Positions 21,399 through 45,314 are shown, counted from the first letter of the stretch. The stretch is 64,000 bases of DNA from Candidatus Woesearchaeota archaeon (GCA_964514585.1 CAZETU010000001.1:178523-242522); one strand, 5' to 3'. A program made the numbers and translations. The notes: generated by a model from the sequence alone, not told the origin.

Positions 21399-21430
21399 CT
21401 TTATTAATTAAACAATCACCTCATAATCGT

Positions 21431-21503
21431 GGGGCCATGGTCTAGCCTGGTATGATTCGAGGTTTGGGACTTCGCGACCGCAGTTCAAATCTGCGTGGCC
21501 CCA
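21431..21503 (+). tRNA. tRNA-Pro(UGG)
   Basis: Acceptor GGGGCCA/TGGCCCC, anticodon arm CGAGG-TTTGGGA-CTTCG, T arm CGCAG-TTCAAAT-CTGCG. Confidence 0.95.
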
Positions 21504-21549
21504 TTCAAATTCAGAGAAAAGCCCCATTCACTAAAATAACAAAACAAAA

Positions 21550-36254: not shown

Positions 36255-38687
36255 TTACAAAAAATCCTGAGTCGGTCTCACAACAACCGAACAATCAGCG
36301 TCCTCATTTCTAAAGGCATCACGACACTTAATATAATAAGTCTCCTGATCATTCCACTCAGCAACGTGAACACTAGAATTAGAATAAGGCATCTCAACTC
36401 CCTCATCAAAACTAAAGTCACAATTATTAAACGAATAAGCACACTCACTATCCCGAACAGTCACAAGCTTCAACATCTGATCTTCCTCATAAATCCTCGC
36501 AACAACCGGCGCATTAGTATCAACATCCAAAGTAAAACTCGCAATATCTAAAGCTAAATTCCCACCCTCATCGATACACTTAACATAATAATCATGCTCA
36601 CCACCAACCAAATCTAACCTCTGCGTATGAATTCCATCATCAGTATTCGTATCATAAAACATAATGTAGTCATTCTCATTACCAGTCTCAGAATAATAAC
36701 AAACCGACCGACCATTATTACAACCATAAATCGTCTCAGCATATAACTCAACAGGCGCAGGACTAACAGCCCCAAAAATGGTCCCATTAGGCATCAATCT
36801 TCTCAACTTCAAACCAGTGCTCCCTCTGAGGCTAAACTTAAAACTCTCTTTATTCTCATTCCTATCATTCTCTTCAACTCCAGGCTGATCCTTACATCTT
36901 ACATAAAAGTCAGCTCCATCCCTAGGAATCCCACTAAGCTCACCTTGACAAGTAAACAACTGCGCCGCATTCATTTGATAAAGCTCACTCGAACAACTCA
37001 TCTCATTTTGCATATTATCATAATCCTGATCCTGAGTACTCCACCTACAAGTCGACGGCTCATTAACATAAAACTCAACCATAGCAGTATCCTGTTCCTC
37101 AGCAACACACCCACCATTAACAACCGAAGTAGCCTTAACCTGCGGAGCAGTCACGTCTGGCGACGGATCAATACAAAACCGAATAGCATACTCAGCCGAA
37201 TTCTCATTCCCATTCTTATCCTTACACCTCAAATAAAACGTCAAATCCTTCCCATTCTCCAAAACAAGACCAGTCCCCTCAATCTCAGCAGCCCCAGGCA
37301 AACTAAACTTCTCCGAATGATTATAAGAATACAAATTACTCGACCCCACATAACTAATCATCTCATCAAATGTCTCAGTATGATTAAAATCAATCTTACA
37401 CTGCGCTGGCTCATTAACAGTAATCCCAAACTCCAACGGTGTAAACGCTTTTAAGCACCCATCACTAGATTCTAAATTAACAATCTTAAATCCAGGACCA
37501 GGCGGCGAAATCTTAACATCAGTATACTTATGCCCCAAACTAAGCTCATTATAATTCGGCTTAATCACAGGCATATCAACATCCCGAGGATTAATATTCA
37601 CACACTTCTCATCCACTGTTCCCTCATTAACAATCTCACAATTCTGTCCCAAAGATTTACACCTATACTCAGAACAAGGCAAAGAGTCATCATTACAAAT
37701 CTCACAATCATTCCCTCCCGACGGAGCCTGCCACGGCATACACTCAAAAGTCACAACCTCAGTATCCATCTTCTGATACATAGCAACAAAAACAACAGCC
37801 CCAATCCCAACACCAACCAAAGGATTAGAAAGCCACTTCCAAGACTGCGACTCAAGAATTTTACTATAAGTAGAAAAAAACCTATAAGATCCAGCTCCAG
37901 CGGCCAAAGCCGTAGACAAAGCCTCAGTATTTTGTTCCTCCATCCCAAACAAACTTCCAATCATCTGACCAGCAAAATAAGCAATTCCTGCCCAAACCAA
38001 ACCAGAGACAGCTGCATCAGCAAAAGTTCCTTTAATAAGTCCAAGATGAGAAGATCCAAATTTAGTACTAGTTTGGCCAGCACTAGTAACCGGAGTCTTA
38101 GCAACAACGGAAGAAGTTCCTTCAACAGTTTTTGTAACACCATTAGAATTAGTAACGACCATATCATAAGTACCTTTTTCAGCACCAGCAGTAACAGTGG
38201 CAGTTGTTCCGTCACCTAAAGCTGCAGTTTCAATACCTTTCTCTCCCATGTATTGTAAGGTTCCACCATTATAAGTTCCAGCAGGAAGTTGGGTTGTTAA
38301 GTCAGCAGCATAAGTAGTGGTTCCAGACCAAGAGCCCGTATTGCCCGAGGCGTAATTCGTAACATCAACCTTAGGAGCATTAGAAGGAGGAGTTGGAAGT
38401 TTTGAAGTTTCCCCAGCCCCAGCGGATCCCTTAAGTCCCCCAGCACCACCAGTCTCAACAGTAGAGGTTCCTGCTTCTGCAGCATGTTGAGATGTAATAA
38501 CACTACCATCGCCAATTATACCATCACCATTAATATCATATTGAAGGTCAACTTCACTAGGAGTGCCAGCACTAACAAATTCAATATTCCCAATCATAAA
38601 TGCAAACGCAAAAACAGACAAAATAAACAAGCCTAATTCAAAACTAGCAACGGATTTTTTAACAAATAAATCAGACCCTTTTTTCAT
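36255..38687 (-). CDS. Large Cys-rich surface protein with Gly-rich hydrophobic segment and Ig-like repeats (810 aa)
   Basis: VASFEL N-terminus; FECMPWQAP...PCSEYRCKSLG motif shared with 46689-50477. Confidence 0.8.
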   Translation of the reverse strand: MKKGSDLFVKKSVASFELGLFILSVFAFAFMIGNIEFVSAGTPSEVDLQYDINGDGIIGDGSVITSQHAAEAGTSTVETGGAGGLKGSAGAGETSKLPTPPSNAPKVDVTNYASGNTGSWSGTTTYAADLTTQLPAGTYNGGTLQYMGEKGIETAALGDGTTATVTAGAEKGTYDMVVTNSNGVTKTVEGTSSVVAKTPVTSAGQTSTKFGSSHLGLIKGTFADAAVSGLVWAGIAYFAGQMIGSLFGMEEQNTEALSTALAAGAGSYRFFSTYSKILESQSWKWLSNPLVGVGIGAVVFVAMYQKMDTEVVTFECMPWQAPSGGNDCEICNDDSLPCSEYRCKSLGQNCEIVNEGTVDEKCVNINPRDVDMPVIKPNYNELSLGHKYTDVKISPPGPGFKIVNLESSDGCLKAFTPLEFGITVNEPAQCKIDFNHTETFDEMISYVGSSNLYSYNHSEKFSLPGAAEIEGTGLVLENGKDLTFYLRCKDKNGNENSAEYAIRFCIDPSPDVTAPQVKATSVVNGGCVAEEQDTAMVEFYVNEPSTCRWSTQDQDYDNMQNEMSCSSELYQMNAAQLFTCQGELSGIPRDGADFYVRCKDQPGVEENDRNENKESFKFSLRGSTGLKLRRLMPNGTIFGAVSPAPVELYAETIYGCNNGRSVCYYSETGNENDYIMFYDTNTDDGIHTQRLDLVGGEHDYYVKCIDEGGNLALDIASFTLDVDTNAPVVARIYEEDQMLKLVTVRDSECAYSFNNCDFSFDEGVEMPYSNSSVHVAEWNDQETYYIKCRDAFRNEDADCSVVVRPTQDFL

Positions 38688-38721: not shown

Positions 38722-39237
38722 TTATTCGATAACCCTAAATTTTCTTACATCCGCAGCTCCACTTTCTGCTCTAGCAATTACAACATATTCTCCTGGAAGT
38801 AAGGAGTCTTTTCTAACAATACATGCTTTCCCCGGCAATGCGTTATACCGATCAAAAGACTTACCATTTTTGTCTCTAAATTCATAAGAAACACGCTCTC
38901 TTTCACTATAAGCCCCTAAATCAATATATATTCCAATGTTTCTATTGTCAATAACATTTCCAGCATCATTACCCAATTCTGAAATCTCAATATTCCCATT
39001 TTCATCCTTATCATCACATTCTCTAAAATTCATTCTGGGATCAGGACTCTTATTAGTACGAGTTGGGAAATACTGTTCTGATAAAGTTTTAGCATTGGCC
39101 TGCCTATCCCTATTCCTCTGAACATGCTTCCCTGCTTCATATGTAGCAATAGGCATACATCCATTAACAGCAACAGCAGCCAAGCCAGCAAGACCAACTC
39201 CTAAAAAACCACGTCTAGTAATATTACCTTTTCTCAT
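38722..39237 (-). CDS. Putative lipoprotein with Tat-like signal and EF-hand loop
   Basis: TRRGFLGVGLAGLAAVAVNGC; DKDENGNIEISE. Confidence 0.6.
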   Translation of the reverse strand: MRKGNITRRGFLGVGLAGLAAVAVNGCMPIATYEAGKHVQRNRDRQANAKTLSEQYFPTRTNKSPDPRMNFRECDDKDENGNIEISELGNDAGNVIDNRNIGIYIDLGAYSERERVSYEFRDKNGKSFDRYNALPGKACIVRKDSLLPGEYVVIARAESGAADVRKFRVIE

Positions 39238-39366: not shown

Positions 39367-40383
39367 ATGGATCTCATTAAACCAAAAAACTTGGAAAGGG
39401 GAGACACTATAGGAATTATTTCTCCTTCGGGAGGCCTAGCTCCGTTCGCTCCTCACAGACTAGATAATGCAATTAAATTCTTAGAAAATCAAGGGTATAA
39501 AGTAAAAGAGTTTTCTTGCACGAGGAAAAATAATGGATGGGAATCAGCTCCAGCAGAGGAAAGAGCCAAAGATATAATGGCCGCATTTTTAGACGAAGAA
39601 GTAAAGGCAATTATATGTTCAATAGGTGGGAACACTCTAAATAAAGTATTAAAATATCTAGATTTCGGAAAAATCGGAGAAAACCCAAAAATATTATGTG
39701 GGTATTCAGATATAAGCGTTCTTCATTATGCAATATTAAAAAAGACAGGGCTATCAACTTTTTACGGTCCATGTATGATGACCCAGTTTGGAGAGTATCC
39801 AAGTCCTCTGAGCTATACTATAGAATATTTTAACAAAGCAATTGTAAATGGGAACATTGGAGAAGTAGAATCATCAGAAGAATGGACTGGAGAAACCCTA
39901 GATTGGTTTGCAAAAAAAGATCTAGAAAGACCTAGAAAATTATCAAAAAACCCGGGCTATAAATGGCTAAAAGAGGGTAAAGCTAACGGAGAATTAATCG
40001 GCGGGTGTCTCCATTCCATAGCACACTTAATAGGAACAGAATATTGGCCAAATCATAATGAAAAAATTTTATTTATAGAAACACCAGAAGGGGAAGACTT
40101 CAAGAAAAGCGAATCACTGGCCGAAATTGATGCTCAGTTAGCAGACCTCGAAATTGCAGGGATTTTTAAACAAATAAAAGGCTTGGTGATAGGAAGACCT
40201 TTTGGCCAATCAGAAAAAGAAGTCGAAAAATTCAAAGAAGCAATTCTTGATAACACTAAAGATTACAGTTTCCCAATTTTATTCGGGATAGATATAGGAC
40301 ATACTGATCCCCAAATAACAATTCCTTTAGGAGCAAATGCAGATTTAGATTCCGAGAAAAATTTATTTATGATAAACAAATAA
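39367..40383 (+). CDS. Peptidase S66, MccF/LD-carboxypeptidase family
   Basis: GDTIGIISPS, CGYSD nucleophile, FIETPE, GHTDP; EEWTGETLDWF aromatic loop. Confidence 0.93.
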   Translation: MDLIKPKNLERGDTIGIISPSGGLAPFAPHRLDNAIKFLENQGYKVKEFSCTRKNNGWESAPAEERAKDIMAAFLDEEVKAIICSIGGNTLNKVLKYLDFGKIGENPKILCGYSDISVLHYAILKKTGLSTFYGPCMMTQFGEYPSPLSYTIEYFNKAIVNGNIGEVESSEEWTGETLDWFAKKDLERPRKLSKNPGYKWLKEGKANGELIGGCLHSIAHLIGTEYWPNHNEKILFIETPEGEDFKKSESLAEIDAQLADLEIAGIFKQIKGLVIGRPFGQSEKEVEKFKEAILDNTKDYSFPILFGIDIGHTDPQITIPLGANADLDSEKNLFMINK

Positions 40384-40387
40384 TCTA

Positions 40388-41491
40388 CTAATTAACTTCA
40401 TCTCTCCCAACTTCTCGAACCCCAGCGCTTGAAACAATAATTTTTTTTGGAACTCCAATATAGTCTGAAAATTTTGCCTTCGTTGTTCTTCTTGTTCTAC
40501 GGTCATCAAGTAAAACACGCCCGCCTTCAGATCTTATTTTTTCATAAACTTCTCTAGTTCTAGCATAAACATCTTCTGAATCACCAAACATTAAAACAGA
40601 AGTATCAAATGGTCTTATCTCTTCAGGCAAGTCAAACCCCCTACTGTCTCTCGAAGCATCAAATGCAGAGTAAAGCATTCTTTCAATACCCATAGAAAAT
40701 GATCCCAAAACAGGAAAAACATTTTCATTTTTATCGTTAGTGAATTTCAAAGATCTAACTCTTGGAACGTATTCATATCCCATGGCTAAACTTAATGCCT
40801 TATTTTGCTGATCATCCCAATTAACATTATCTCCCTCGGGGCATTTATAGAAATATTCCAAATCAAAATCTAAATGAGGCCCTCTTCTAACGTTTTCACC
40901 TCTCTTTCTTTTTGTTGCTTTGATCCCCAATCTATCAAAAAGACCTTCACAGGCTGATTCATATTGATTAAGTGAAAGGCCAAATCTTCTTCTATCCTCA
41001 TCAAGAGATAGCATTGCACAAACCTCAAACTCTCGCAATTTTAAAATTCCTCGAGGATCTTTTATAGGTCTTAGTAGACTCTTATAAAAAAATAATCTCA
41101 ATGGCAAAGTTCTATAAGAGACAGTATCTCTGTTTAGCCAATCGACAATTTCCATTTCATGGGTTGTAAGCCCTATATACTTTTCCATTGGGCTAGGCAA
41201 AGTAACAAACTTTCTCTCGAAAGTATCTTGGATTTCTGTTCCATCGTTTAAAACTTCACGTTTCATATAACTAGGAATTTCAATATGTAACGCGTCCATT
41301 CCTTCATGGCTTTCTCTAACTAATCTAGTAAGATTATCTCGTACCATAGATCCAATTGGAAGAGAAAAAGGCAATCCAGGATTCTTAAAAGAGAAAAAAA
41401 CTCCCCGCTCTAAAAGATCAGATGTTCTAAAATCTTGAAAATTATTAGGAATTTTAAATGAATTTGGAAAAGGCAACTTACTTATTCTCAT
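40388..41491 (-). CDS. Diverged ProRS-like class II aaRS paralogue (no editing domain)
   Basis: LPIG motif 1, TTHE, SYRTLP...LKLREF motif 2, GSFSMGIER motif 3, LLDDR...IGVP anticodon-type domain. Confidence 0.8.
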   Translation of the reverse strand: MRISKLPFPNSFKIPNNFQDFRTSDLLERGVFFSFKNPGLPFSLPIGSMVRDNLTRLVRESHEGMDALHIEIPSYMKREVLNDGTEIQDTFERKFVTLPSPMEKYIGLTTHEMEIVDWLNRDTVSYRTLPLRLFFYKSLLRPIKDPRGILKLREFEVCAMLSLDEDRRRFGLSLNQYESACEGLFDRLGIKATKRKRGENVRRGPHLDFDLEYFYKCPEGDNVNWDDQQNKALSLAMGYEYVPRVRSLKFTNDKNENVFPVLGSFSMGIERMLYSAFDASRDSRGFDLPEEIRPFDTSVLMFGDSEDVYARTREVYEKIRSEGGRVLLDDRRTRRTTKAKFSDYIGVPKKIIVSSAGVREVGRDEVN

Positions 41492-42318
41492 TTTATTCTT
41501 TTAGAAGTATAAAGCTCCGAATCTTCCCAAGCCATTTTATTAGAGAGTATCATTATGTCATATCCCATCTTTGATAAATTTTCTCTAAATAAAAACATGT
41601 ATTCCTTGTAGTTTTTCATTAATTTTTCTAAAGTTTCTGGGAGTAAATCATTAAGGTGTTTTCTGTTTAATATATCCTCGACAAATCCACTTACAACACC
41701 ATCCTTAATATAATCAAATTTAAAACTAAGTTCAACATATTTTTCTAAACCAGGCAAATCAAAAAACTTAATCCAATCTTTCTTATAGAGTGGTGTTATA
41801 TCTACATGTATTGCTTTTGAAACATCTTCAATTAGTTTTTTAGATGGAACCTCCATATAATACATAGGAACTGCTACAATAAATCCAGATTTTTTGCAAA
41901 CTCGTCTACATTCCTCAAACGCTTTTTCTCTATTGGACATTAAAGAAAGCACATTGCCAACTATTACCAAATCAAATGTTTCATCTTCAAAGGGAAGAGA
42001 ATTAACATCTGCTTTTTTAAATCTAATATTGTCCAATTTCTCCACATTAGCTCTTTTTGCCGCCTCTTTTAGACTCATTTCGTTTATATCTATAGAAATT
42101 AATTTGCAGGGAATCAGTTTGCTTAATTCAATCGCGGTAAATCCAGTACTGGTCCCAATTTCTAAAACCTTACTGTATCTATCTATACAAGTTCTATTTG
42201 CAATTTCAAAAACAGTATTTCTCCCACCCGGGATCCTGTTTGTTTCTTTAGTTAAGCCAATTAATTGATTGTAATCCATTTTATCAATATCATCCGCTGT
42301 TAATTCTTCAATTTTCAT
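41488..42318 (-). CDS. Class I SAM-dependent methyltransferase
   Basis: RIPGG, VLEIGTSTG, ADVNSLPFEDETFDLV. Confidence 0.9.
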   Translation of the reverse strand: MKIEELTADDIDKMDYNQLIGLTKETNRIPGGRNTVFEIANRTCIDRYSKVLEIGTSTGFTAIELSKLIPCKLISIDINEMSLKEAAKRANVEKLDNIRFKKADVNSLPFEDETFDLVIVGNVLSLMSNREKAFEECRRVCKKSGFIVAVPMYYMEVPSKKLIEDVSKAIHVDITPLYKKDWIKFFDLPGLEKYVELSFKFDYIKDGVVSGFVEDILNRKHLNDLLPETLEKLMKNYKEYMFLFRENLSKMGYDIMILSNKMAWEDSELYTSKRIK

Positions 42319-42319
42319 T

Positions 42320-43477
42320 TTAAGGTTTTAAAGTTCCATCAACTCTTGGGAATTGATTAGCGCTCCAAATAAATGGCATTTCTAAAAGACCCTGTAAAAA
42401 TCTCTCCCATCCAAGTCCAAATCCAGACGTTTCTTTATAATTATTTAATTTACGAGTTTGAAGGTATGGTTCATAATCTTCTTTTGGAAGATTAAATATC
42501 TCAGATTTTTCTTCGAGCTCTTCTCTAGACCTAACCCTATGTCCACTTCCAATAGTTTCTCTATATCCTGGCCAAATAATATCTGAATTATTAGCCACTT
42601 TTGGGATTTTACCATCTATCATAGAATGATAAAAAGGAACCTCTAAGAGAGGGAATTCTCTGATTAAAACCATATTCCCCATTATTTCTGTAATTTTAAT
42701 TTCTTCCCAAGATCCAAAATGCTTAAGTGTAAATTCTTTATATTTCTCTTCGCCCGTTTCTTTGTATAAAATTTCTAGCGCCTCCTTAAATGTAATTTTC
42801 GGTATCTCTAATATGTTCTCGGCAAATTCGCCAAGTTCTCCTAGCTTCTCTTTAGATAAAAAATATGCTAAGTCCTCATTATTTTTTACCAACAAATCTT
42901 CTATTATTTTTTTAAGCAAATTAAGAGCAATAAATTCATTCTCCTTTTGATTAACTTTCCCTTCATATTCTATATGGTGGAATTCAGACAAGTGAGTTGC
43001 ATCAGATATCTCTTTCCTGAATGAATTATAAATTGAATAAACATGATTCACACCACTTTGCATCATTGCAAGCTCCAAATAAATTTGTGAAGATTCTGAC
43101 AGAAAAGCTTTTTTGGGCAAGTTAAACCAATCAAGAGTTATTGGACATGTATCTGTTGTGTAATTCAAAGCCTCTTTGCCATAAACCGCTCCAGGAGAAG
43201 ATATCATTCTTGTAGTCATTGGAAGTGCAGTAAAAAGGGCATTTAAGTTATCGAAATATTCATTTGCAGAAAGATTTATCCTATGATTAATTTTAGCTAT
43301 ATGTCCCCACATTTCATCTTCATTAAATTGATTAACTCTTTCTTTAAACTTTTCAATGGGAGGAACTACAGATAAAACATTATCAATTTTTGAGAATACC
43401 TTATTCCCTTTATAGGAAATTGTCCCATCTTTATTTGCAGTATATGGACCTAACATAAGAAAAGAACAAATTCTCAA
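42320..43477 (-). CDS. AsnRS/AspRS catalytic-domain-only paralogue (amino acid-tRNA ligase-related)
   Basis: LSESSQIYLE, FRKE.SDATHLSEF motif 2, ETIGSG, GFGLGWER motif 3; no OB anticodon domain. Start may be ATG 43456. Confidence 0.85.
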   Translation of the reverse strand: MRICSFLMLGPYTANKDGTISYKGNKVFSKIDNVLSVVPPIEKFKERVNQFNEDEMWGHIAKINHRINLSANEYFDNLNALFTALPMTTRMISSPGAVYGKEALNYTTDTCPITLDWFNLPKKAFLSESSQIYLELAMMQSGVNHVYSIYNSFRKEISDATHLSEFHHIEYEGKVNQKENEFIALNLLKKIIEDLLVKNNEDLAYFLSKEKLGELGEFAENILEIPKITFKEALEILYKETGEEKYKEFTLKHFGSWEEIKITEIMGNMVLIREFPLLEVPFYHSMIDGKIPKVANNSDIIWPGYRETIGSGHRVRSREELEEKSEIFNLPKEDYEPYLQTRKLNNYKETSGFGLGWERFLQGLLEMPFIWSANQFPRVDGTLKP

Positions 43478-43532
43478 TTTAAAAACATTACTATAGAATA
43501 GTTACAGTCAATTCTATACAATTTTATCTTTT

Positions 43533-45314
43533 CTATACCCGACCACTAATAGCCGCAATCACTCTTCCAGAAAACCCACCACTAACAATATTCACAGTAT
43601 TCGGAGCAAACTCTTCCTCGCTCCCATCAACAGTCCAGACATATCCATCATCAGTATATTCTCCCTGATAATTAACATAACCACCACAGTCACCTAGAGC
43701 AGTACAAATCCTATTAGCCCCAAGAGCCCATTCCTCTTCCAAACACTCACATCCCTCAACACACTTCCAATTATCATCAAGCAAGCCCTTTTCATAAGTC
43801 ACAATACATTTAGCACTAGCCTGCCCACAAATCTGCGACGCACTTCCCTCTTCCCAAAAAGCAAGTCCAGGCGGAAAATTAGGCAAACAAACCCCGCTAG
43901 CTCTATTAGTCACAGTTTTCTCAACTACTTCTTCATCATCATCTCCACCAAAAATAGACTTCCCAGTTATCGGAGCAACAACATTCCCAGTATAAGTCGG
44001 ATTGCTAAACGATCCAGTCGAAGTAGGATTAGAATAAGTCGAACTACCAACTCCACCACCATCACTACTTCCAGCCCCAATTAAAAGCCCAGCAATCGAA
44101 GGCTCCCAAATACAATCCCTCCTATCAATATTCAAACAATCATCCTCATCCTCTTGAGCCGTACAATCCTGCCACCTATTAACTCTACATCCAGAAGTCC
44201 CAAAATCCCCAGCGCTCGTCTCAATATAACTCCACAAACAAATCTCATTCCTATAATCAGCACAAGGCTCAACCCTCACCTCACCATCAACACAAGTTTC
44301 CCTAAAATACCTCGACCCAACCTGGTCGTTCCCCTCGCCAACATTATCATCATAAACACACCACGCTTCCCCATTAATTCTTTTCTCACCATCAGCATCC
44401 ACACACTCAGTCCTCTGACAATAATAATCACTATCCGCAGGCCCACCAAAAACCCCTTCCCACTCAGCACACCGCGACCCTAACATATAATCACAGTTCC
44501 CACAATTCTTATTCGACCCATCATTAGGATCACAAATATCGTCAGCCTCGGCAACCTTCCCATTATTCCAACTCCTAACCTTATCCGAAGAATAAATATT
44601 CTCCCTATTCCCACAAGAATCAATCCAATAAACCTGACCCCGATAACACGAAGTAGAAGTCTGCTTAGCACAAGACGTACTTAATTCCTCAGCCGAACAA
44701 AGAAAGTCCTCATAAAAAGTCCTCTGCTCCGACAAGGCAACTTCAGTACCATTCACCGTCTCAACTCTCTCCCCAGCCCCACAATCAGCCCGAGTCGTAA
44801 ATTCACAAACCCTATCAAAATCCTTCTCATAAACACAAGCACCCATATCCTGAGCCTGTGCCGTTGCAATACAACTAACCTCATTAGTTATATCAGACCT
44901 ATAATCATTCTCAACTCCAAACAGCGTCGACAGTCTCTTACATCGAACCAACGGAACAAACGCAGCCTGATCAGCAATTATACAACATCCCAACTGACAC
45001 TGCGGCACCTCTTCAACACTTCGAGAATCCCACGTCCCACCAGCGTCCGAACAAACTCTCTGCGGCGTATTCCCCATACAAATTCCTTCCTCACTATCAT
45101 AACAAGTCCCAAGCTTACAATAAGAAGTAGTCTCACAAGACGTCGGCGAACTCTTAAATCCAGAATCACAAGTTTCCTCAGGAGCATTAATACACCATCC
45201 ACCACTCTCAGTCTTTTCACAACAAAAACTCGGGTCAGACATCACAGTCTCAGCAGCAACACTAAAAGTAAAACAAACCACAAACACACTCATCAACAAA
45301 CTCAACTTATTCAT
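43533..45314 (-). CDS. Secreted Cys-rich protein (593 aa), paralogue of the N-half of 46689-50477
   Basis: Signal peptide; LGCC, DSCGN, EPCADYRN, GDCGG shared motifs. Confidence 0.8.
   Translation of the reverse strand: MNKLSLLMSVFVVCFTFSVAAETVMSDPSFCCEKTESGGWCINAPEETCDSGFKSSPTSCETTSYCKLGTCYDSEEGICMGNTPQRVCSDAGGTWDSRSVEEVPQCQLGCCIIADQAAFVPLVRCKRLSTLFGVENDYRSDITNEVSCIATAQAQDMGACVYEKDFDRVCEFTTRADCGAGERVETVNGTEVALSEQRTFYEDFLCSAEELSTSCAKQTSTSCYRGQVYWIDSCGNRENIYSSDKVRSWNNGKVAEADDICDPNDGSNKNCGNCDYMLGSRCAEWEGVFGGPADSDYYCQRTECVDADGEKRINGEAWCVYDDNVGEGNDQVGSRYFRETCVDGEVRVEPCADYRNEICLWSYIETSAGDFGTSGCRVNRWQDCTAQEDEDDCLNIDRRDCIWEPSIAGLLIGAGSSDGGGVGSSTYSNPTSTGSFSNPTYTGNVVAPITGKSIFGGDDDEEVVEKTVTNRASGVCLPNFPPGLAFWEEGSASQICGQASAKCIVTYEKGLLDDNWKCVEGCECLEEEWALGANRICTALGDCGGYVNYQGEYTDDGYVWTVDGSEEEFAPNTVNIVSGGFSGRVIAAISGRV

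Follow-up and report, generated by a model that had tools for sequence, protein, structure and literature searches.

A four-gene cassette in a 64,000-nucleotide stretch of the genome of a Candidatus Woesearchaeota archaeon (GCA_964514585.1 CAZETU010000001.1:178523-242522; hereafter the window, with positions counted from its first letter) is probably a mobile biosynthesis-plus-immunity system of the agrocin 84/microcin C type, for an acyl-phosphoramidate nucleotide that would mimic an aminoacyl-adenylate and block a tRNA synthetase. The cassette, at positions 39367-43477, encodes an asparaginyl-tRNA synthetase (AsnRS) catalytic core of the AgnA family, an S-adenosylmethionine (SAM)-dependent transferase of the AgnB1/MccD family, a prolyl-tRNA synthetase (ProRS)-like enzyme and a serine peptidase of the MccF clade of family S66. 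An earlier, preliminary description of this DNA had proposed a Trojan-horse aminoacyl-nucleotide system, and this proposal gained ground: three of the genes have matches in agrocin 84 biosynthesis (AgnA, AgnB1 and AgnC5) and two in the microcin C system (MccD and MccF). None of the refuting outcomes that the description had listed was observed. The observations comprise homology, conserved synteny, intact catalytic residues and an accessory, mobile distribution, and from these we infer the product and its chemistry.

Three of the genes form a tight run on the minus strand, namely the class IIb AsnRS-like gene, which is the anchor of the cassette (42320..43456, 378 amino acids (aa), PF00152), the class I SAM-dependent transferase gene (41488..42318, 276 aa, Methyltransf_11/25/31) and the ProRS-like gene (40388..41491, 367 aa, class IIa aminoacyl-tRNA synthetase (aaRS)-like, with a bacterial-type core and an anticodon-binding domain and without the INS domain). 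The gap between the first two is 1 nt and the overlap between the last two 4 nt and, judging from the sequence, the methyltransferase gene is translationally coupled to both neighbours. The S66 gene (39367..40383, plus strand, 338 aa, PF02016 and PF17676) converges on this operon, with 4 nt separating the stop codons. All of this layout, including the gap, the overlap and the convergent peptidase gene that the preliminary description had listed, is intact. The anchor reading frame is open to a TTG at 43477; its start is probably the ATG at 43456, because the resulting 378 aa equal the family length and the family consensus opens at that methionine.

Comparison of the S66 protein with solved structures identified MccF-type enzymes as its best relatives (B. 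anthracis BA3275, E = 4.5e-59; E. coli MccF 3tla, 4e-48). Whereas MccF-type structures ranged from 1e-47 to 4.5e-59, LdcA-type chains reached 7e-27 or worse and left residues 160-200 unaligned, and the LdcA equivalog model gave 113.7 bits against a cut-off of 378. Alignment with E. coli MccF (33% identity) placed S114, E238 and H312 on the catalytic S118, E243 and H311, and W180, within the segment EEWTGETLDWF, on W186, the MccF residue against which the adenine of processed microcin C is stacked (PMC8323819). Identity with AgnC5 of the agrocin 84 plasmid pAgK84 is 34% (E = 1e-65), and a search of plasmid proteins with S66 returned agnC5 on pAgK84 and mccF on E. coli plasmids. By scores and alignment, the protein groups with the MccF clade and not with LdcA, in agreement with the earlier view that it is MccF-like rather than an LD-carboxypeptidase and that EEWTGETLDWF resembles the MccF Trp loop. 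It is the product of the sole S66 gene of its genome, and its predicted role is probably that of a self-immunity or processing hydrolase.

The methyltransferase matches a protein from the same plasmid, Arad_15003, over its full length (43% identity, E = 9e-74), and E. coli MccD over 185 aa with the N-terminal extension included (34%, E = 5e-28). On pAgK84, the order is agnA, the SAM-dependent methyltransferase gene Arad_15003 and agnB2, which encodes the agrocin-84-resistant leucyl-tRNA synthetase (LeuRS), with the 'MccF-like' agnC5 further on; lying between agnA and agnB2, Arad_15003 is agnB1 by position. The 1-nt gap between anchor and methyltransferase genes in the window parallels the agnA-Arad_15003 arrangement. 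Across the related loci described below, agnB1 matches this methyltransferase gene in 39 loci and mccD in 37.

The AsnRS-like protein carries PF00152 (108 bits) and neither PF01336 nor an OB-fold domain, and the asnS model covers only residues 56-383, with 142 bits against a cut-off of 414. Lacking the N-terminal OB-fold anticodon-binding domain and scoring under the cut-off, it differs from canonical AsnRS and is an AsnRS-like catalytic core, as had been described before. An AlphaFold2 (AF2) model (pLDDT 86) best matched T. thermophilus AsnRS with Asn-AMS (9sh8, TMq 0.75), and AsnRS and aspartyl-tRNA synthetase (AspRS) structures with adenosine sulfamate, from 'reaction-hijacking' studies, were among the fold matches. 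Invariant across 26 members of the anchor family (40-84% identity) are the motif-2 residues R147/E149, E163/E165, R307 and the motif-3 residue R352; E163/E165 and R307 are the equivalents of E225 and R368 of the T. thermophilus enzyme, which we take to recognise the asparagine side chain. Residues 81-120 form an invariant loop of low model confidence that substitutes for the usual AsnRS sequence. With AgnA, the protein shares 26% identity over 345 aa (E = 1e-22), and in a quick maximum-likelihood tree AgnA fell on the AsnRS side of class IIb, as the sister group of the entire anchor family (SH-aLRT 99). AgnA itself is a truncated AsnRS homologue without an anticodon domain (PMC4392301) and has been proposed to make the phosphoramidate bond of agrocin 84, in a pathway that is otherwise unknown (PMC8323819).

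Models of ProRS gave only 92-108 bits with the ProRS-like protein against cut-offs of 307-558 (107.9 against 558 for one of them). Those of bacterial ProRS matched it in two pieces, and it aligns with residues 1-191 and 434-535 of E. faecalis ProRS, skipping the INS editing domain. Its AF2 model (pLDDT 88.5) includes an anticodon-binding domain and best matched the INS-less R. palustris ProRS (2i4l, TMq 0.86), and the proline-site residues T110/E112, the motif-2 residue R141 and the motif-3 residue R271 are invariant in 16 family members. With a score under the curated cut-off and no INS, it is not a canonical ProRS; the genome's own ProRS is of the archaeal type and scores above the cut-off (447 bits). 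The ProRS-like family is small, with about 16 relatives of 26-52% identity from Nano- and Pacearchaeota metagenome-assembled genomes (MAGs). All six relatives whose contig was read adjoin other cassette genes, five of them with both the AsnRS-like core and the methyltransferase, and the S66 gene is found in L020, whose contig starts at the methyltransferase end. Where the trio is complete, S66 follows in four of five loci, the contig of the other (L019) stopping before any S66. The flanks differ in every ProRS-like locus read, the ProRS-like genes there being 39-51% identical, and some loci carry additional genes: L012 has a radical SAM enzyme, L014 a second methyltransferase, and L016 a 668-aa class I aaRS-like gene together with a HIT protein. 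Comparison of the ProRS-like protein with AgnC1, called remotely ProRS-like in a review, gave no evidence of kinship (BLASTP E = 0.64; hhalign with the 16-sequence profile, probability 0.5%).

Whether the four families occur together elsewhere had been named as a check on the cassette, and they were indeed co-located in many divergent loci. In the 39 loci where the sequence extends 4 kb or more downstream of the anchor, the methyltransferase is present 33 times, the S66 gene 28 times and a HIT gene six times (plus L054 by tblastn), so that either hydrolase is present in 33-34 of the 39; at least one further aaRS-like gene accompanies the anchor in 31. These accessory genes are of several kinds. 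Besides the ProRS-like ones, there are lysyl-tRNA synthetase (LysRS)-like genes that encode an OB fold and score 275-307 bits where the cut-offs are 428-468, and archaeal-LeuRS-like genes without the CP1 editing domain (279-304 bits against 677). Several loci have a true AspRS or AsnRS gene, above cut-off, beside the anchor; these genes are extra copies in their genomes, as expected for resistant copies of a target. Close relatives of the anchor carry differing accessory genes: in a genome of the same taxonomic family, the anchor is 83% identical and a LysRS-like gene replaces the ProRS-like one. Within shared cassettes, identities to the window proteins keep a consistent order, with 68-84% for the AsnRS-like core, 55-79% for S66, 64-83% for the methyltransferase and 35-51% for the ProRS-like enzyme. 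Loss of the editing domains, scores far below cut-offs and the fast evolution of the accessory enzymes together argue against a role in translation.

The hydrolases vary as well. HIT genes lie beside the anchor in ten loci (L016, L041, L043, L046, L048, L054, L055, L056, L066 and L070), mostly alternating with S66 genes, the two being found together in one locus only. Each of the ten HIT proteins carries the motif E-x5-H-x-H-x-K (E-x5-H-x-H-x-K-L-Y-P), whereas the housekeeping HIT protein of the window genome has HxHxH; E-x5-H-x-H-x-K is the hallmark of the MccH clade, whose members cleave aspartamide-adenylate at its P-N bond (PMC7157772). Another cassette (L023) encodes an Acetyltransf_3 GNAT protein resembling the C-terminal domain of MccE, and L042 and L047 a pyridoxal phosphate (PLP) decarboxylase resembling its N-terminal domain, with the same reading-frame family in L053. 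Judged by these similarities, the three known microcin C immunity classes, MccF-like S66, MccH-type HIT and GNAT proteins like the MccE C-terminal domain, alternate around the anchor. The decarboxylase, of the ornithine/diaminopimelate/arginine type, belongs to a recurrent module next to the anchor (L042:5443-8845, L047 and L053) with a ParA/NUBPL-like ATPase and an APH-family kinase; in a Paenibacillus MAG, an AMP-binding enzyme follows the anchor, and in Natrinema an ABC exporter pair lies between anchor and S66. As a separate observation, a protein family about 330 aa long, to which neither Pfam nor NCBIfam models matched, follows the anchor or the methyltransferase, mostly in HIT loci (L041:10980-11963, L043, L046, L049, L054, L055 and L056).

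Synthetase cores of the aaRS type can make side products from aminoacyl-adenylates, and the cassette product could accordingly be a non-toxic adenosine phosphoramidate or dinucleoside polyphosphate that serves as a signal or nitrogen carrier. HIT enzymes do hydrolyse nucleoside phosphoramidates (PMC7157772). However, the linked HIT proteins are all of the MccH subtype and not of the general HinT type, the extra AspRS and AsnRS genes beside the anchor suggest a toxic, target-directed product, and a core signalling system would not be expected to be so sporadic and mobile. A benign nucleotide is thus very improbable.

Strong conservation of the anchor across domains (601 matches, the best 120 of them, taken as clusters, being 62-85% identical) would also fit a conserved macromolecular partner. 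The aaRS paralogues might then aminoacylate a protein or a non-tRNA RNA and the methyltransferase act on the same target, for which class IIb proteins without an anticodon domain provide precedents. One such case is the LysRS paralogue EpmA/PoxA, which modifies EF-P, and EpmA models were among the weak matches. Yet the cassettes share no gene that could encode such a target, the accompanying hydrolases are of the MccF and MccH types acting on small aminoacyl-nucleotides, and the nearest characterised homologues lie in antibiotic clusters. Modification of a macromolecule, which the preliminary description had offered as its alternative, therefore gains no support and is improbable.

The AsnRS-like gene was detected in only three of 120 further genomes from this order and in none of eight from the genus. 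S66 is found in 7 of 121 genomes, and S66 and AsnRS-like genes are adjacent in both genomes that hold the two. Our scan of species genomes yielded 51 anchor loci, whose hosts are Woese-, Pace-, Nano-, Parv-, Micr-, Mars- and Aenigmatarchaeota and the haloarchaea Natrinema gari, N. altunense and Haloarcula regularis; bacterial anchor records include the Paenibacillus MAG, Zixibacteria and a gammaproteobacterium. A plasmid search with the anchor returned only relatives of 27-31% identity, in Pantoea, the Bacillus group, Xenorhabdus and Streptomyces. Among these, Pantoea agglomerans plasmids (NZ_CP141611.1 and others) have the anchor match (27-28%) under a gene annotated as a GNAT acetyltransferase, and the B. 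pseudomycoides plasmid NZ_CP009649.1 has a distant anchor relative (27-28%) plus an S66 gene. Patchy distribution, differing flanks and a cross-domain tree bear out the previous suggestion that the cassette is foreign, and support the view, from genome comparison, that it is horizontally mobile and accessory.

These data also bear on a housekeeping explanation, in which the AsnRS-like protein would serve the reduced organism as AsnRS or as an asparagine synthetase of the AsnA type, with the ProRS-like protein as a second ProRS. No canonical AsnRS was found in the window genome (1.04 Mb, 89.65% complete), archaeal AsnA models match the anchor, more weakly, with 101.6 bits, and public records name many members of the anchor family 'asparagine--tRNA ligase' (e.g. 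P0064, P0108, P0115, P0142 and P0146), although on family members without the anticodon domain this label is likely a misannotation. Canonical ProRS and AsnRS/AspRS genes elsewhere in the genome had been suggested as a check, which turned out as expected for ProRS and AspRS, with two GatB-family genes besides, and not for AsnRS. AspRS, the two GatB-family genes and a canonical HIT gene lie within about 13 kb (G000:C2:77401-90548); the position of AspRS near GatB-family genes fits the indirect route to Asn-tRNA, and the genome also encodes class II LysRS and other class II synthetases. Given, in addition, that the same gene is found in Natrinema, Haloarcula and the Paenibacillus MAG, and elsewhere beside true AsnRS genes, a housekeeping role is extremely improbable, and it was rejected on distribution and domain loss.

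Within the window, the cassette sits between the 810-aa (36255-38687) and 593-aa (43533-45314) halves of a split giant surface-protein gene, which agrees with its earlier placement inside a surface-protein locus. It shares this gap with a 171-aa reading frame at 38722-39237 without a family match. In the related archaeon BMS3Abin17 (L065), the surface-protein halves adjoin each other, with the cassette next to them in a different orientation. The four cassette genes have a G+C content (GC) of 0.30-0.355, a third-position value (GC3) of 0.22-0.26 and a coding-strand GC skew of 0.13-0.27, compared to a GC of 0.37-0.44 and a skew of 0.35-0.61 in the flanking surface-protein genes. The claim that the cassette lacks the strong skew of its neighbours thus holds for the surface-protein genes, but a few other window genes outside the cassette have comparably low skew. 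Around the cassette, neither an integrase nor an adjoining tRNA gene was found, and flanking repeats did not exceed what chance would give in A+T-rich DNA. The nearest tRNA gene is tRNA-Pro(TGG) at 21430-21504, 18 kb from the cassette; its lying on the same stretch as a ProRS-like gene is probably a coincidence. Upstream of the operon, an A+T-rich intergenic leader of 76 nt (43457..43532, minus strand), read directly from the sequence, separates the AsnRS-like ATG from the stop codon of the 593-aa surface-protein gene and is a probable promoter region; promoter and terminator scans with bacterial models did no better than on shuffled sequence. Identity as a known defence system was rejected, the sole match among PADLOC models being that of a generic methyltransferase to mad2.

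With the cassette read as an agrocin 84/microcin C-type system, its products could act in the following manner. The compound made would most likely be small, an aminoacyl- or dipeptidyl-phosphoramidate nucleotide that resists hydrolysis. The AgnA-like core would bind ATP and a substrate of the Asn/Asp type and form an N-acyl phosphoramidate (P-N) link; the simplest route, MccB-like on free asparagine, would lead from Asn-AMP through a succinimide and its attack on a second ATP to aspartamide-adenylate. The AgnB1/MccD-like transferase would alkylate the intermediate from SAM, with the phosphate as its target by analogy with MccD, and the editing-less ProRS-like enzyme would select proline and join it to the core. 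Proline on the free alpha-amine would give a prolyl pro-drug; alternatively, its transacylation onto an adenosine phosphoramidate would give a prolyl-AMP mimic of the phosphosidine type, similar to phosmidosine, for which AcmF and SbzA are precedents. The ProRS-like enzyme may double as a resistant ProRS, as SbzA confers resistance (PMC12945691), and the convergent MccF-type S66 would cleave the acyl-N bond and so protect the producer. Because the anchor pocket residues are unchanged whichever accessory aaRS-like gene is present, the anchor probably makes the common core, and the accessory enzyme must then select the variable amino acid. The AspRS/AsnRS copies, the MccF/MccH-type hydrolases and the conserved Asn-site residues favour an Asp/Asn-type acyl-phosphoramidate adenylate as the warhead. 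Much more tentatively, DPANN archaea might need neither ribosome nor nonribosomal peptide synthetase to make Trojan-horse nucleotides of the aminoacyl- or peptidyl-phosphoramidate kind, using the AsnRS core for MccB-like formation of the P-N link on free asparagine and editing-less ProRS-, LeuRS- and LysRS-like paralogues as interchangeable ligases that select the amino acid. On this view, which we regard as possible but doubtful, the cassettes would represent the first archaeal antibiotic family aimed at aaRS, possibly directed at hosts or competitors of the episymbionts.

Several points weigh against a biosynthetic system of this type. AgnA has a branch length of 2.44 in the quick tree, so its sister position may partly reflect long-branch attraction, although two independent observations support its kinship with the anchor: both lack the OB domain, and the genes next to them are orthologous. 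What AgnA does biochemically has itself only been proposed (PMC8323819), and the product of the cassette is deduced. The 5' phosphoramidate of agrocin 84 is not alkylated, which makes the methyltransferase's target uncertain. Between the ProRS-like protein and AgnC1, no similarity was detectable, and the modelled anticodon-binding domain of the former fits a spare resistant ProRS as well as a ligase. No exporter, precursor peptide or nucleoside-tailoring gene is present in the window, and a producer role in a 1-Mb symbiont without an obvious export route is unproven.

The missing exporter and the complete catalytic core and anticodon-binding domain of the ProRS-like model would also suit an island for immunity only, in which S66 detoxifies the antibiotics of neighbours, the ProRS-like protein is a drug-insensitive spare, and the AsnRS-like protein and methyltransferase act in detoxification or salvage. 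Indeed, stand-alone MccF and MccH homologues confer resistance without production (PMC8323819, PMC7157772). Against this, the most conserved gene and anchor of the cassettes is the homologue of AgnA, the proposed agrocin 84 synthetase; the hydrolase and aaRS-like genes near it vary from locus to locus; and the ProRS-like protein, at 108 bits against a cut-off of 558, evolves much faster than the anchor. We therefore consider pure immunity unlikely; it and the three alternatives discussed above are each less well supported than a system for both biosynthesis and immunity.

If such a system is confirmed, symbionts with reduced genomes would be spending resources on chemical warfare or on manipulating their hosts. 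Many DPANN archaea carry this version of the cassette, and the cultured haloarchaea Natrinema gari, N. altunense and Haloarcula regularis have related clusters; the minimal four-gene version would be the simplest system for establishing such chemistry, and the set of swap-in aaRS paralogues would supply building blocks for new tRNA-synthetase inhibitors. The label 'asparagine--tRNA ligase' can mislead metabolic reconstructions of DPANN archaea and could hide the absence of AsnRS. A review search for agn-like clusters returned only Ensifer and 19 Actinobacteria (PMC8323819), our literature search found no work linking DPANN archaea with agrocin or microcin C, and an archaeal agrocin-84-like family with a ProRS-like module appears to be undescribed in the literature searched. 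Separately, Natrinema gari (L057:5923-8769) and N. altunense (L058) have a 948-aa LeuRS gene divergent from the AgnA-like gene, with GMSSS in place of KMSKS. Haloarchaeal LeuRS2 has been reported to have Ser for Lys in KMSKS, low activity, tRNA binding, dead editing and an unknown function (PMC4005665); by analogy with AgnB2 in pAgK84, LeuRS2 may belong to agrocin-like clusters.

Among known systems, those of ascamycin (AcmF/AcmD) and SB-203207 (SbzA) resemble the cassette in having in-cluster aaRS paralogues that acylate the NH2 of an adenylate-like scaffold: AcmF and SbzA acylate sulfamate or sulfonamide nitrogens of nucleoside-type antibiotics, and self-resistance is provided by a second aaRS copy or by the same enzyme (PMC12945691). 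They differ in that AcmF and SbzA are alanyl- and isoleucyl-tRNA synthetase-like, work on sulfamate and sulfonamide scaffolds and come from Streptomyces, and genes of the sulfamate pathway are absent from the cassette. Phosmidosine, from Streptomyces, is a natural prolyl phosphoramidate nucleotide said to resemble prolyl-AMP (PMC6429109, PMC11229370). Here, the likeness is one of chemical analogy only, as no phosmidosine gene cluster was found in the literature searched, and an 8-oxoadenine-forming enzyme is absent from the cassette. Phosmidosine is also a methyl ester, which would match the combination of a ProRS-like enzyme, a methyltransferase and a P-N-forming enzyme.

Unlike in the microcin C cluster of E. 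coli, the precursor peptide MccA, the ThiF-like MccB and the pump MccC were not found in the cassette, so that nucleotidylation would fall to an aaRS core, and any peptide part to aaRS paralogues and not to the ribosome. Shared with microcin C are the MccD-type transferase, the MccF-type S66 with its triad and Trp, and the convergent orientation of S66, as for mccF, and sister cassettes hold MccH-type HIT proteins, a GNAT like the MccE C-terminal domain and a decarboxylase like its N-terminal domain. Compared to agrocin 84 (pAgK84, Rhizobium rhizogenes K84), the window cassette has four genes instead of 17, lacks homologues of the tailoring proteins AgnC1-C4, C6, C7, D, E and F and of the exporter AgnG, and resides in a DPANN archaeon, with only 26% identity between anchor and AgnA; its third gene encodes a ProRS-like protein with core and anticodon domain, without INS and below cut-offs, where pAgK84 has a full LeuRS. 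Nevertheless, both systems have the same succession of an AgnA core, a SAM transferase and an aaRS-family gene, accompanied by an MccF-like S66 peptidase.

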